DNA of 44,592 nucleotides from Gammaproteobacteria bacterium (GTDB taxonomy: Bacteria > Pseudomonadota > Gammaproteobacteria > SZUA-152). Under the pieces are notes generated by a model. That model saw only the letters and a program-made list of their open reading frames with translations. It was not told the DNA's origin and ran no database searches. The stretch covers positions 1-44,592 of the forward strand of contig DATCIR010000050.1 in assembly GCA_036507695.1 (NCBI GenBank), given 5' to 3'. The position numbers were made by a program, and so were the translations under genes. Of the stretch, positions 4,751 to 41,715 are shown piece by piece. How positions within the stretch are numbered: the first letter of the stretch is position 1; each line of letters starts with the position of its first letter.

Positions 4751-4758
4751 GATACTTT

Positions 4759-4815
4759 GGTTTTTGTAATAACTGGTTTTTGTAATAACTGGTTTTTATA
4801 GCAATTGGTTTTGCC
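4759..4815. repeat. 16-bp tandem repeat (GGTTTTTGTAATAACT x2 plus degenerate copies)
   Basis: Perfect copies at 4759-4774 and 4775-4790. Degenerate copies through about 4815. Confidence 0.85.
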
Positions 4816-6581: not shown

Positions 6582-6725
6582 TTTACACTCTAATAACTTA
6601 CTGATGTTATTAATGTATTAAAAACCGATGGTTCCGACACCACGAGCACAAGACTTGCCTGCACAGGCCGGTTTCGTTAGACTTAGCCGTCGATCTGGAT
6701 TGGCGGCAGGGCGATTTCGCGGCGC

Positions 6726-6808
6726 TCACAGGAACCACTCACAGGCACAACACACAGGAACCACTCACAGGCACAACTCACAGGCACAACTCACACGCAC
6801 AACACAGC
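6726..6808. repeat. CA-rich tandem repeat (26-bp unit x2 with 13-bp subrepeats)
   Basis: CACAGGAACCACTCACAGGCACAAC repeated at 6726 and 6752, then CACAGGCACAACT-type subunits. It generates the low-complexity N-terminus of tracked ORF 6628-6927. Confidence 0.85.
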
Positions 6809-6819
6809 AGGAGAATGTC

Positions 6820-8879: not shown

Positions 8880-8931
8880 TGCTTTGTGAGCGTGGTTTTG
8901 GTTTCACACTAGTTTTGGTTTCACATGAGTT

Positions 8932-9402
8932 TCATTTTGACGATTTTGCCTTACCCGCGGGATCCCGGCTCTTCCGGCCGTCGCCGTGGCGATCCGGCAA
9001 ATCCATATCCTCCGTGCCGTCCACACTGGAGCTGTATTTATTTACCATGAAATACACAAATGCGCCAAATACCAGCAAATACAATAGCGCGGCGCCAAAA
9101 CCCCAATCCACCCACGCCCGTTCATAACCGGGGCGATCACCCCAGAACGGGAAACTGAGACCGATTGCAACCAACAACACAGCGCCGATCACCGCCAGAA
9201 ACCACTTGGGCACACCTTTTTGGGACTGAGGTATTTTCTCCACGAGTTCCCAATCTTCCAAGCCGCGCTTTTGCCGGCGTTCTTCATCGGAAGAATAGCC
9301 GAAATTATCATCGGGAATTTCACCCCAGTTTTTCTCTGTGACTTCTTTTAGTTCCGGGGTGTGTGTTTTGTCTGCCGCAGACGTTTTGTTTATTTCAGTC
9401 AT
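8932..9402 (-). CDS. membrane protein with weak FixP_N-like segment
   Basis: 156 aa, 2 TM. GVPKWFLAVIG...PFWGDRPG resembles the LPRWW motif of the CcoP N-terminal domain and the PLWGQRP segment of the 17156-17782 product. No heme motif. Confidence 0.5.
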   Translation of the reverse strand: MTEINKTSAADKTHTPELKEVTEKNWGEIPDDNFGYSSDEERRQKRGLEDWELVEKIPQSQKGVPKWFLAVIGAVLLVAIGLSFPFWGDRPGYERAWVDWGFGAALLYLLVFGAFVYFMVNKYSSSVDGTEDMDLPDRHGDGRKSRDPAGKAKSSK

Positions 9403-20789: not shown

Positions 20790-20866
20790 TTTTACTTGTG
20801 ATTTTTTACTTAAAATAGCTTACTTAAAATAAGTTTACTTAAAATAGTTTTACTTAAAATAAATAG
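20790..20866. repeat. AT-rich tandem repeat (TACTTAAAATA, 4 copies, 14-15-bp period)
   Basis: Copies at 20807, 20821, 20836 and 20851, plus a degenerate copy near 20792. Confidence 0.85.
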
Positions 20867-20888
20867 ATTGTGGCGTCTCGCCATTTTG

Positions 20889-20914
20889 TTCGCTGCTAAC
20901 ATTCGCTGCTAACA
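20889..20914. repeat. 13-bp tandem duplication TTCGCTGCTAACA x2
   Basis: Perfect copies at 20889-20901 and 20902-20914. An inverted partial copy GTTAGCAG lies near 20937. Confidence 0.85.
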
Positions 20915-21170
20915 TAAGCTTGTTGTGATTTTCCTTGTTAGCAGAGACCTCCCCAAGACAGCCACATCTTCCGCAATGTCCACTTGTAACCCGCCATGCC
21001 TTGCTGTCTTGCCTTACCGCTGTCCCGCGCGGCTATCCCACTCAAAACAAGCGGGTTATATTGGCTAGAAATCGTGTCATATGTCATACATCAGGTCAAG
21101 CCTAAAATTGTTGCTATAAAATGATTCAATCACTTTTTCGTTTTAAACCTATTCCCACGCAGTCAATCAC

Positions 21171-21674: not shown

Positions 21675-22127
21675 TTAGGCAAACACTTTTAACGTACCGC
21701 CCAGCTTCTGGTACTCGGTTTGGTTGTTAAACTGTCCTTTGTGAAACACATATTGCCGCCTCGTCCCTGACGTGTCTAACCCGGTTAGGCCGAACGATTT
21801 CCCCGCGTGGTCCGAGAAGTATCGAACATTTTTTACCAGTTCGATCCTCCCGCCATTGCGCAATTGAAGCTGAACCCGTTGCTTGTTGACATCCAGCGCC
21901 ACCGGAGTATTCGGCAACAACATCAGCCGGCCCAGGATACGGTGTAGCCCCTGATAGAAGAAAAAACACGCCAAAAAAAACAACAGGTAGGCCAACGCAT
22001 GATTGGGCTGGTACCAGAAAATAGCCGCCCCGGTACCCAAACCGGACACGGTGGGAATATACATCAGCAGATCCCAGATTACGCCTTTGCGGTCCTGCGT
22101 TAATTCATAGCGGTCGGATTTTGCCAT
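21675..22127 (-). CDS. hypothetical membrane protein (2 TM plus soluble C-terminal domain)
   Basis: 150-aa ORF. Its start codon lies inside the first unit of the 14-bp tandem array. Confidence 0.55.
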   Translation of the reverse strand: MAKSDRYELTQDRKGVIWDLLMYIPTVSGLGTGAAIFWYQPNHALAYLLFFLACFFFYQGLHRILGRLMLLPNTPVALDVNKQRVQLQLRNGGRIELVKNVRYFSDHAGKSFGLTGLDTSGTRRQYVFHKGQFNNQTEYQKLGGTLKVFA

Positions 22128-22227
22128 CGTTACCTAACCATCGTTACCTAACCATCGTTGCCTAACCATCGTTGCCTAACCATCGTTGCCTAACCATCGT
22201 TACTATCTAACCATCGTTACTGCCTAA
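22123..22227. repeat. 14-bp tandem repeat CCATCGTTRCCTAA (7 units)
   Basis: Units start at 22123, 22137, 22151, 22165 and 22179, with longer variants at 22193 and 22210. Each unit carries CAT (ATG on the minus strand). Confidence 0.9.
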
Positions 22228-22284
22228 GAAGTCATTACCAGCTGTAAAGCAGCTTACGTTAATTACCTGCGTTAATTACCTATG

Positions 22285-22851
22285 TTATCCCGCGTTATCC
22301 GGAGATGTGTTTGTGTTCCGTGGCGCGGGTTGGGCGGAACTCACACTGGATTCGCTACGCAGTAATCCCGCGATAATCATATCCAACTCGTTATATAACA
22401 TGCGGCCGGGTTGCTTGAACCTGACAACGTTCGAGCCATCAATAACATAGGTCCATGGATCCCCGATTACGCCAAATGCCTTAAATGCTTGCGGGTTTTG
22501 ATATTGATCCATATGTAAAAAGATCACATCCTGCTCATACTTCACTAACAGGGCTTTTAACATCTGCAGTTGGTTATCACACATTGTGCAATGGCCCGGT
22601 GTGGCAAACTCCAGAATAATTGGCTTATTTAACGTCAAGGCTTCATCAAGCGACAACAGGTACATGCGCTCGTCCGGATAGCGATAGGTGGTAATTCGGC
22701 TAAAATCTCCGCTCACATCATGCAGAGTTTTGGTGCGTAAGCTGGGAGCGCTCATCCCTACCTTGAGACTGCTGTCATCAATGGAACAGCCCGCCAGCAT
22801 TATCCCCACCAAAAACAGCGGGAGAAACCGCAATGTCGCGCGTCTTTGCAT
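22285..22851 (-). CDS. thioredoxin-fold lipoprotein (CxxC)
   Basis: Start set at MQRR..., where TAATG overlaps the stop of the upstream gene. Lipobox LAGC. ILEFATPGHCTMCDNQ is a thioredoxin-like CxxC motif. Confidence 0.7.
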   Translation of the reverse strand: MQRRATLRFLPLFLVGIMLAGCSIDDSSLKVGMSAPSLRTKTLHDVSGDFSRITTYRYPDERMYLLSLDEALTLNKPIILEFATPGHCTMCDNQLQMLKALLVKYEQDVIFLHMDQYQNPQAFKAFGVIGDPWTYVIDGSNVVRFKQPGRMLYNELDMIIAGLLRSESSVSSAQPAPRNTNTSPDNAG

Positions 22852-25036: not shown

Positions 25037-25203
25037 CCTCCCGATTTAAAAATCTGCCCGCTTTGACACACGTTGTTATGAATAACGACGCCGTACTTTA
25101 CGACGCTGTACTTTTCGATGCCATAACCAATTAATCTGTATCTTACCGTCACTTAACTGTATCCTATTTCAGAACCTTGTTGCAGTTGCGCGCCCGCCAT
25201 TAC

Positions 25204-25256
25204 CGTGACTTGAGTCGTGACTTGAGTCGTGACTTGAGTCGTGACTTGAGTCGTGA
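25204..25256. repeat. 12-bp tandem repeat CGTGACTTGAGT x4
   Basis: Perfect copies at 25204, 25216, 25228 and 25240, plus a partial fifth copy. Confidence 0.9.
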
Positions 25257-25353
25257 AATGAACCGCCACTTGATTCCCCGTAATCCCGACTCCGGTGGCA
25301 GCTAATATACGCGTGACGAAACAGCTTTGGATAAATAATACTGCGCTATTTTT

Positions 25354-25407
25354 CTTGAAACTTTATCTTGAAACTTTATCTTGAAACTTTGTCTTGAAAC
25401 TTTGTCT
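25354..25407. repeat. 13-bp tandem repeat CTTGAAACTTTRT x4
   Basis: Copies at 25354, 25367, 25380 and 25393. Confidence 0.9.
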
Positions 25408-30512: not shown

Positions 30513-30535
30513 CAGATTTTTCTGACGAGGCTTAT

Positions 30536-30586
30536 CGGTTACGACATTCGGTTACGGCATTCGGTTACTACACTCTCTGTTACGAA
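30536..30586. repeat. 13-bp tandem repeat CGGTTACGRCATT (3 copies plus partial)
   Basis: Copies at 30536, 30549 and 30562. Confidence 0.8.
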
Positions 30587-31518: not shown

Positions 31519-32250
31519 TTAAAATTTATAACTCGCGCCCAGGCTTGCCATGGAAATACTGAATGCGTCCGCATCGATAAGCTGCATAATCTCCAGATTG
31601 ATATAGATATCCAGAGGCGCTTTATATGCCGCGCCCAGCCCGTAAGAAAGGCTCGATTGCGTGTCGTCCTGGAGAAAAATTGTATCTCCGTCCAATTGCG
31701 CAACGGCAATTCCCAGCAATCCATATACCGATACATAGTCCGAAAATTCATGGGTTGCCCGCGCATAGATACCCGCATAATAATTGATGCTCAGTGATAC
31801 ATTCTGGCCGTTCACGGTATTGGAATCATCGGTCACATCAAAACCAAAGTGACTTTCCACCGCCACCACGGGAATACGGTCGGGGAACAGAATCACCCCC
31901 ACCTTCGCCCGCATATTGATCGGATTGTAGGTGACTCCTAATGCATCCATACTGGAAAAGTTCAGGTCCGCGCCCGCGTACGCCACCTTTTCTCTGGCTA
32001 CTTCGGCTTGTGCTTGCTCTTGTTCCTGAGGCCCTTGCTCCCGCGACCTTTGTTCCTGAGAACTTGGCTCCTGAGTCCTTTGATCCTGAGGGATTGGTTC
32101 CTGAGGGATTGGTTCCTGAGGAGATGGTTCCTGAGCAAGAGCGTGATTGGCAAAAGCCAACAGCGCATGCAAAGCCAGCACTGCCCAAACCATCCTGGAT
32201 TGACATCGCAAACTGTACACCACGCACCCCTTATCACGAATTATTGACAA
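31519..32250 (-). CDS. outer-membrane beta-barrel protein with Pro/Gln/Glu-rich repeat linker
   Basis: Signal-like ALHALLAFANHALA. QEPSPQEPIPQEPIPQDQRTQEP repeats. Alternating beta-strand pattern ending in the YKF terminal aromatic. An alternative start is at 32193 (MVWAV). Confidence 0.7.
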   Translation of the reverse strand: MSIIRDKGCVVYSLRCQSRMVWAVLALHALLAFANHALAQEPSPQEPIPQEPIPQDQRTQEPSSQEQRSREQGPQEQEQAQAEVAREKVAYAGADLNFSSMDALGVTYNPINMRAKVGVILFPDRIPVVAVESHFGFDVTDDSNTVNGQNVSLSINYYAGIYARATHEFSDYVSVYGLLGIAVAQLDGDTIFLQDDTQSSLSYGLGAAYKAPLDIYINLEIMQLIDADAFSISMASLGASYKF

Positions 32251-34033: not shown

Positions 34034-34528
34034 ATGTCGCTCATGTTAAAACTGTTTTTCGATATTTGCCTGTTGCGCGCCAACGCGGAAAACGTGCCGG
34101 CTTCGCGTGTGTTGTTGATCATGAGCGTTTTAGCCTATTTTGTCCTGTCGCTGGGCATTACGTTTATCGAAGGCAACTTGTCAAAAATCGTCGCCGTCAT
34201 CCTGGTTGGCTTTATCCTGGTGATCGCGCTGGCCCAGGTGGGACTGTGGATTCGCAGCAGTATGAACCGCTCGGTGCAAACTATCACGGCGCTGGCCGGA
34301 ACTGGCACCATTTTTTGCATATTGACCTGGCCACTGGTATTAATGGGCGAGCAATGGATTTTTGCGCGCTACTTACTGTTACTGATTTTTATTTGGGATA
34401 TTGTTGTAGTGGGCCATATATTGCGCAACGCGCTGTCCTTGTCGTTCTGGGCCGGTATTGGTATTTCGATTTTTTATATCTTTACCTATTTCAGGATAGT
34501 ACGCGTATTCTTTATCGCTCAGACGTGA
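34034..34528 (+). CDS. hypothetical inner-membrane protein (5 TM)
   Basis: 164 aa, strongly hydrophobic. No family recognised. Confidence 0.55.
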   Translation: MSLMLKLFFDICLLRANAENVPASRVLLIMSVLAYFVLSLGITFIEGNLSKIVAVILVGFILVIALAQVGLWIRSSMNRSVQTITALAGTGTIFCILTWPLVLMGEQWIFARYLLLLIFIWDIVVVGHILRNALSLSFWAGIGISIFYIFTYFRIVRVFFIAQT

Positions 34529-34544
34529 TCGATCTACAACTGAC

Positions 34545-34702
34545 GTAACTACTCACCCCGTGTGCAGCATAGGTTAAAGCGGTGCTGGTGTTTCCTGCCG
34601 GGGGCGTCCGCGGCCAGGGATGGCCGCAGTCGAGCCTACAGGGACGTACTTGTGGCGTCCCCCGGCAGGAGACACCGGCGCCGCCCACGGGTGAGTAGTT
34701 AC
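34545..34702. mobile_element. 158-bp MITE, copy A
   Basis: Terminal inverted repeats GTAACTACTCACCCCGTG and CACGGGTGAGTAGTTAC. A long internal stem (GGTGTTTCCTGCCGGGGGCGTC with GGCGTCCCCCGGCAGGAGACACC). 8-bp direct repeat CAACTGAC at 34537-34544 and 34703-34710. More than 95% identical to copy B. Confidence 0.75.
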
Positions 34703-34750
34703 CAACTGACATTATCAATTACGGCTATTTAAACGGGGAATCTTACTGGC

Positions 34751-41457: not shown

Positions 41458-41532
41458 GATGAAATCCTTAACCTAAGGTGTTTTAAAGTCGCACTGTCCG
41501 TTTTTATTACTCTGGTTTTTTATTACTTTGGT

Positions 41533-41690
41533 GTAACTACTCACCCCGTGTGCAGCATAGGTTAAAGCGGTGCGGGTGTCTCCTGCCGGGGGCGTCTGCG
41601 GCCAGGGATGGCCGCAGTCGAGCCTACAGGGACGTACTTGTGGCGTCCCCCGGCAGGAGACACCGGCGCCGCCCACGGGTGAGTGTTTAC
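41533..41690. mobile_element. 158-bp MITE, copy B
   Basis: Same orientation as copy A (34545-34702) and nearly identical to it. 8-bp direct repeat ACTTTGGT at 41525-41532 and 41691-41698. Confidence 0.75.
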
Positions 41691-41715
41691 ACTTTGGTTT
41701 TGTTACTGTGATTTT

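Follow-up and report, generated by a model that had tools for sequence, protein, structure and literature searches.

What is the 158-bp repeat that occurs twice in this stretch of gammaproteobacterial DNA, and what does it carry between its ends? The window, by which we mean the whole 44,592 nucleotides of contig DATCIR010000050.1 (C50), is part of a MAG of the SZUA-152 lineage (GCA_036507695.1; G000 below) that comprises 3.71 Mb in 369 contigs with 51.5% G+C. A sequence-only reading of the window had proposed that the repeat was a miniature transposon (MITE), spread by transposition and distinct from any conserved regulatory site, and measurement confirmed what it described and supported this interpretation. 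Copy A occupies positions 34545-34702 of the plus strand, is one of 34 full-length copies in the genome, and sits between two perfect 8-bp target-site duplications of the sequence CAACTGAC (34537-34544 and 34703-34710; no strand assigned). Its termini, GTAACTACTCACCC at 34545-34558 and GGGTGAGTAGTTAC at 34689-34702, both given on the plus strand, form a perfect 14-nt inverted repeat; conservation of this repeat was seen at 75 left and 69 right ends of the family. Copy B (41533-41690, plus strand) has the same length, is 96.8% identical to copy A, lies 6,988 bp away from it, and carries a mutated right terminus, GGGTGAGTGTTTAC; its own duplication, ACTTTGGT (41525-41532 and 41691-41698; no strand assigned), differs from that of copy A.

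Inside the termini of copy A, a G+C-rich outer stem of 26 bp, previously put at roughly 25 bp, is formed by a 5' arm at 34579-34604 and a 3' arm at 34659-34684 (plus strand), as supported by folding and by the covariation across genomes of the homologous stem (helix 1). This stem surrounds a nested hairpin that is part of a conserved two-hairpin core at 34605-34657 (plus strand), which was delimited by pattern scan, alignments, pair counts and a covariance model, R1. The core consists, in order, of CGTC, hairpin 1 (34609-34628, with the loop CAGGGATG), GTCGA, and hairpin 2 (34634-34656, with TACAGGGACGTA inside GCC/GGC). The hairpin quoted earlier for copy A, TGCGGCCA-GGGA-TGGCCGCA, is in fact the form found in copy B and in the consensus, since copy A begins with C and has a C.A mismatch at that place; in the fold of minimum free energy, hairpin 1 of copy A is left with a GGGA tetraloop. 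The suggested folding of the RNA gave -110.6 kcal/mol for the plus strand (z = -10.3), and model R1 scored copy A at 85.1 bits (34580-34681) and copy B at 87.7 bits (41568-41669). No gene of its own was found in the element, the sole ORFs being the spurious ones that run through it, and the two predicted on the minus strand (34512-34718 and 41473-41676) both exist and overlap it. Furthermore, an IS66-family search confirmed that no transposase of this family is encoded in the window.

Across the genome, the repeat forms a large and young mobile family. BLAST of the 158-bp unit against its own MAG returned about 127 family loci, i.e., well over a hundred where the window alone offered two, and these comprise 33-34 full-length copies, 10 composites, 53 copies cut by a contig end and 31 partial ones. 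Duplications of 8 bp flank 31 of the 34 full-length copies (25 perfect, 6 with one mismatch), and the remaining 3 have no clean one. All of these duplications differ in sequence from copy to copy, and the 8-mers do not belong to a longer repeat. Fold stability, number of loci and duplications together lie far outside what chance would give. The insertions sit in AT-rich intergenic DNA, with an A+T content of 67% in the duplications and 62% in the 40-nt flanks, compared with 48.5% in the genome. The full element was absent from all 40 relatives searched, and the two orthologous spacers (rnd-ORF|mpl and thiE|hemL) of three congeners (G001-G003) are empty, the closest of them, G003, with flanks 88% identical, having a single AAACTGAC at the position of copy A. 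Among the 22 copies that measure exactly 158 bp, 21 diverge from the consensus by only 1-6 bases (the outlier differs by 29), and it is because of this small divergence, together with the empty sites in three congeners, that we place the amplification recently and within this lineage. The 158-bp sequence is thus a real, recently active MITE, its length falling within the range of about 70-300 bp that defines such elements, and its family, as detailed below, is IS66. A longer variant of 231 bp, with 9 intact copies and about 28 junctions, bears a 73-nt insert between the two core hairpins. The family is also a main cause of the fragmentation of the MAG, since 53 of its approximately 127 loci end at contig edges.

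Against this background, the idea that the two window copies are immobile and serve mpl and hemL as conserved regulatory sites or as terminators has practically no chance of being right: both copies are intergenic and fold very stably, but it is refuted by copy-specific duplications, by unrelated flanks at some 127 loci and by the empty orthologous spacers, and the lack of a T-run terminator and the opposite orientation of the two copies relative to their respective neighbour genes speak against it as well. The neighbours in question are, for copy A, a 164-aa membrane ORF without a family match and mpl, and, for copy B, thiE and hemL; NCBIfam confirms rnd, mpl, hemL and thiE.

The parent of the MITE was sought through its termini. 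Members of the IS66 family are marked by termini that start with GTAA and by 8-bp duplications (ISfinder; Han et al. 2001). Both hallmarks, GTAACTAC... termini and 8-bp duplications, are present in the MITE and in an intact insertion sequence of another gammaproteobacterium (G412), the kind of element that the sequence-only reading had suggested looking for. Of 400 other genomes of the class, 26 contain the exact 15-mer terminus GTAACTACTCRCCCC, and its reversed pattern, used as the control, matched five genomes, once each. The intact element in G412 (C7:98616-100324) is 1,709 bp long, has inverted 15-nt termini, GTAACTACTCACCC(C), identical to those of the MITE, is flanked on both sides by the 8-bp duplication TGAGAATC, and contains one ORF of 495 aa that matches PF03050 (DDE_Tnp_IS66) at an E-value of 1e-38. 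In two further genomes (G092 and G130), the same terminus directly adjoins homologous transposase genes, which are 75-87% identical.

Within the MAG itself, a 67-aa C-terminal remnant of the transposase persists at C142:20112-20312, 85% identical to the C-terminus of the G412 ORF. PF03050 and protein searches revealed no intact IS66-family transposase in this assembly, whose shortest contig measures 2,127 bp; this absence is weak evidence, because a collapsed 1.7-kb IS contig would fall below that minimum and could have been dropped. With no intact transposase in the assembly, the family can be called recently active rather than currently mobile. The nearest plasmid-borne relatives of the transposase, annotated as 'IS66 family transposase', come from Bacillus, Geobacillus, Deinococcus and cyanobacteria at 34-36% identity, and the element itself had no match in the plasmid collection by distant BLAST. 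We take the parent to be probably of the single-ORF ISBst12-like type, a placement based on the single-ORF architecture and the 34-36% identical matches. The likeness to such elements (GTAA termini, 8-bp duplications, an intact relative with identical 15-nt ends) stops at the ends; unlike them, the MITE is non-coding and 158 bp long, and its interior is an unrelated hairpin module. A transposase supplied in trans would recognise the MITE termini and then cut and paste, or copy, the element. At C142:19836-20312 (locus L009, 1135-1755), a graveyard of elements was also noticed, in which a truncated MITE end, a copy of a second core-bearing family (see below) and the 67-aa transposase remnant with a damaged terminus lie side by side.

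If the ends come from IS66, where does the interior come from? The nested hairpin of the sequence-only reading is real, and what that reading overlooked is that it belongs to a two-hairpin module which is conserved widely and without regard to the transposon ends. Relatives that have no copy of the MITE still match element positions 58-115, within quite different inverted-repeat arms. A scan with the core pattern CAGGGATGN{4,8}GTYGAGCYTACARGGAYGTAYTT, using one genome per species, found at least 91 stretches, and among the matches listed the carriers include Pseudomonas, Halopseudomonas, Alcanivorax, Marinospirillum, Aliidiomarina, Saccharospirillum and Sedimenticola, as well as Thioalkalispiraceae, Ectothiorhodospiraceae, Competibacteraceae and one Dongiaceae MAG. 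The last of these (L015, DATLII01), labelled an alphaproteobacterium, has one exact core match, which may reflect transfer or a binning error. In every pattern-scan match examined, a long stem bears the core at its tip. The stem arms differ between genomes, and even between copies in one genome, yet stay complementary. Model R1 matched 38 of 150 other gammaproteobacterial genomes sampled one per genus, i.e., about a quarter, and several genomes hold at least 27 scored copies. A Moraxellaceae MAG has more than 20 core loci, carried in palindromes of about 250 bp.

The carriers of the core are of different kinds. In MAG J047 (RFHJ01; L016, L032 and L047), the MITEs that bear the core have CCAGGG termini and are flanked by duplications of 8-9 bp (GGTGGTGC, ACA[G/A]TATT and GCTAGCAGC), which implies another parent IS family. 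A second core-bearing family of about 200 bp was observed in the genome of the window itself (C108:4843-4942, C230:5754-5853, C142:19949-20048 and C206:3430-3529), with different arms, ends that contain CTACTTTGTTAC / GTAACAAAGTAG, and scores with model R1 above those of the window MITE. In the congener G003, the core of one locus (L005 on C281) points the other way within the outer arms that it shares with a second locus (L008 on C133), as if recombination between the arms had inverted the tip. Conversely, other genomes contain MITEs of 122, 198 and 296 bp that share the IS66-type termini but lack the core, and 8-bp duplications flank those of 122 and 296 bp. Since the core thus occurs in other MITEs and arms, and IS66-type MITEs occur without the core, the 158-bp element is a chimera, with IS66-type ends and the two-GGA-hairpin module as a passenger; the core is a separate module, much older than the MITE. 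We therefore regard a MITE with IS66-type ends and an independent passenger core as the best explanation of the locus, and we hold it with high confidence.

The structure of this passenger was examined in the alignments. Each of the two small hairpins of the core has an AGGGAY hexaloop with a closing C-G pair, and the second hairpin reads UACAGGGAYGUA. Pairs were counted in 58 distinct sequences with 5-nt hairpin-1 stems, because MAFFT misaligned the loops of sequences with 6-nt stems, so that the window copies, which have 6-nt stems, stand outside this count. It was from this alignment that model R1 was built, with which the window copies nevertheless reach 85-88 bits. Paired cells amounted to 94.4%, compared with 35-47% in controls with the partners slid by 1-3 columns, and changes on both sides were found in 26 of 33 pairs, with compensatory changes in 20 of the 21 pairs of the outer stem and in 5 of the 6 pairs of hairpin 1. 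The GCY/RGC pair of hairpin 2 is CG in 42 sequences, UA in 16 and unpaired in none, and the loop letters CAGGGATG and TACA-GGA-GTA are invariant in all 58. G.U exceeded A.C by 56 to 23, and by 32 to 14 when each of the 23 arm families was counted once (p = 0.011), an excess from which we infer that the GGA-bearing strand is probably the one that folds. In the motif GTAYTTR (alignment A2, columns 68 and 71), Y and R were also seen to covary, C with G and T with A, with one T-G exception; at three bases apart they are too close to pair, and the linkage may be one of lineage or a tertiary contact. A reading of the core as a small peptide was rejected: hairpin-1 stems measure 5 nt in some families and 6 nt in others, which changes the reading frame.

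The unpaired CGTC directly before hairpin 1, at the very start of the core, together with the GTAG that precedes a hairpin on the other strand and the long hairpins formed by the repeats, could recall a REP/REPIN-type element, GTAG- or CGTC-tagged and moved by a RAYT tyrosine transposase. Published CGTC-tagged REPs have a CCA tail and loops of 4-5 nt on stems of 8-9 bp, the first pairs of which are A-T (Di Nocera et al. 2013, PMC3733652). The core shares with them the position of the tag and the fact that no dedicated transposase is known for it, but it departs from the family definitions in stem and loop geometry, in the tail and in taxonomic range, theirs being mainly Alphaproteobacteria, so that membership was rejected (PMC3733652). 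REPs, moreover, are palindromes of 20-40 bp that come with a RAYT gene and lack target-site duplications, and the element has terminal repeats as well as 8-bp duplications; we consider this origin very improbable.

Whether the core serves a function of its own, and at which level, is a question on which the orientation of its copies bears. Among 125 core copies, counted with the element masked since spurious ORFs run through it, co-directional neighbours gave 28 sense and 25 antisense, and 21 copies lay between convergent genes against 17 between divergent ones. Such randomness rejects cis-regulation as a general explanation, and because orientation to neighbour genes is random, the module behaves as a passenger.

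One reading is that the core serves the repeat at the DNA level, e.g., as a folded single-strand signal for a mobilising or maintenance activity, the variable arms being kept complementary by a DNA mechanism and not by selection on RNA. The presence of the core in unrelated arms and in MITEs with other termini, its occurrence in either orientation relative to the outer arms in G003 (L005 versus L008) and its random orientation to genes would agree with this. Among mismatches in DNA, too, none is more stable than G.T, and the strand bias is therefore compatible with single-stranded DNA as well. A role of this kind has been proposed for the YPAL repeats of Yersinia, which have no true terminal repeats and are reported to target dyad symmetries with duplications of 3-26 bp (Delihas 2008, PMC2229807). 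YPAL / RU-2 (RF02770, Ysr224) resembles the element in being about 168 bp long, G+C-rich, intergenic and recently mobile, with internal inverted repeats, and differs from it in that the duplications of the element have a fixed length of 8 bp and its terminal repeats span 14 nt. On the minus strand, the Ysr224 model does align to the core (UGUAGGCUCGA..GCC AUCCCUGGC..ACGC), with 19.3-22.3 bits, far under the gathering score of 70. Against a DNA-level role, IS66-type ends and 8-bp duplications explain every family copy in the genome, so that a second mechanism is unneeded; no candidate enzyme emerged; and the small hairpins are local palindromes with loops conserved on one strand only. On balance, we think such a role unlikely.

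Rather better placed, and still only a tentative possibility, is that the core is a working RNA, namely a portable dual CsrA/RsmA site for which the MITE is the spreading vehicle, and that transcribed copies titrate CsrA or put neighbouring genes under Csr control. The consensus for these proteins (SELEX for CsrA, RsmE) is RUACARGGAUGU / (A/U)CANGGANG(U/A). Little or no variation is seen in the core loops CAGGGAUG and ACAGGGAYGU, and a GGA in a hairpin loop fits the CsrA/RsmA consensus; both loops follow A-N-GGA-N and are closed by C-G, and hairpin 2, as (U)ACAGGGAYGU(A), matches the consensus itself. The loops stay invariant in the 58 sequences while the stems covary, and the bias of G.U over A.C marks the GGA-bearing strand as the probable folded one. 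The two GGA motifs are 23 nt apart, a spacing that would be suitable for one CsrA dimer, and csrA is present in the genome. If the core is transcribed, its two loops might bind one CsrA/RsmA dimer, which we hold possible rather than probable on the strength of these motifs. Further hairpins, with CGGGA and AGGGA loops, make the 231-bp variant look RsmZ-like.

Several observations tell against a working RNA. No bias of orientation relative to flanking genes exists (the 28 versus 25 above), a simple scan found no promoter or terminator consensus in the element, CsrA does not account for the tail TAYTTRYRGCG or the conserved linker GTCGAG, and the copies resemble neutral insertions into AT-rich spacers. 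Compared with the CsrB, RsmY and RsmZ sRNAs, the likeness lies in the ANGGAN hairpin loops, of which the 231-bp variant has four; those sRNAs, however, are single promoter-driven genes under GacA/UvrY control, and the element is a dispersed transposon passenger in random orientation in which no promoter was detected. Somewhat more doubtful again is the wider proposal that the core is a portable CsrA/RsmA-binding RNA module, maintained by selection and captured independently by MITEs of unrelated IS families. If it were true, sites for Csr titration or regulation would be spread over the Gammaproteobacteria by transposons.

A role as a CsrA-binding RNA has already been put forward in print for a related motif, TwoAYGGAY. 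This RNA motif (Rfam RF01731) was described by Weinberg et al. 2010 (PMC2864571), and the proposal that CsrA binds it is found in PMC4333381. Like the core, it has two hairpins with GGA loops inside an outer stem, is multi-copy, and occurs in Gammaproteobacteria among others; unlike it, the core has AGGGAY loops, with a purine at position 2, in place of AYGGAY, and is embedded here in a defined transposon. The RF01731 model gave no match at E <= 10 in the element or in the whole genome, and, apart from Ysr224, Rfam searches in E-value mode returned just chance matches of the miRNA-hairpin type and no Csr/Rsm family. The core is a variant of an already described two-GGA-hairpin motif, and its host element is a MITE with an identified IS66-family parent.

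As a MITE, the element is ordinary and well-documented biology, with a clean pairing to a single-gene IS66-family transposase, and few IS66-derived MITEs were found in a literature search. The greater interest lies in the cargo, a structured module with covariation among the strongest in intergenic DNA and common to about a quarter of the sampled gammaproteobacterial genera. Its presence on a transposon of known mechanism provides a tractable handle, in which donor and transposase are defined and carriers are in culture, on a question dating from 2010-2015, that is, whether TwoAYGGAY/YPAL-like hairpins bind CsrA or serve the repeat itself. Among the pattern-scan matches listed, the cultured carriers include Halopseudomonas salina CGMCC 1.12482, Marinospirillum minutulum DSM 6287, Aliidiomarina soli and Pseudomonas saliphila.

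Two other classes of repeat were noticed in the same genome. A non-coding family of 417 bp, seen at C28:6873-7289 and with ends at several contig edges, shares the IS66-type termini (GTAACTACTC[G/A]CCCCCC) and is flanked by an 8-bp duplication, GAATTGAC; inside, it is unrelated to the 158-bp MITE and contains an internal copy of its own left end. In addition, many intergenic spacers contain short tandem arrays with a period of 12-17 nt, the unit of which differs from array to array. Those of the window lie at 4758-4812, 6725-6812, 8895-8932, 20805-20915, 22124-22287, 25085-25407, 30535-30585, 32020-32135 and 41501-41532, the last being a short array beside which copy B is inserted. Over the whole genome, TRF found 419 arrays of period 11-18, with a peak at 15, which corresponds to 113 per Mb.
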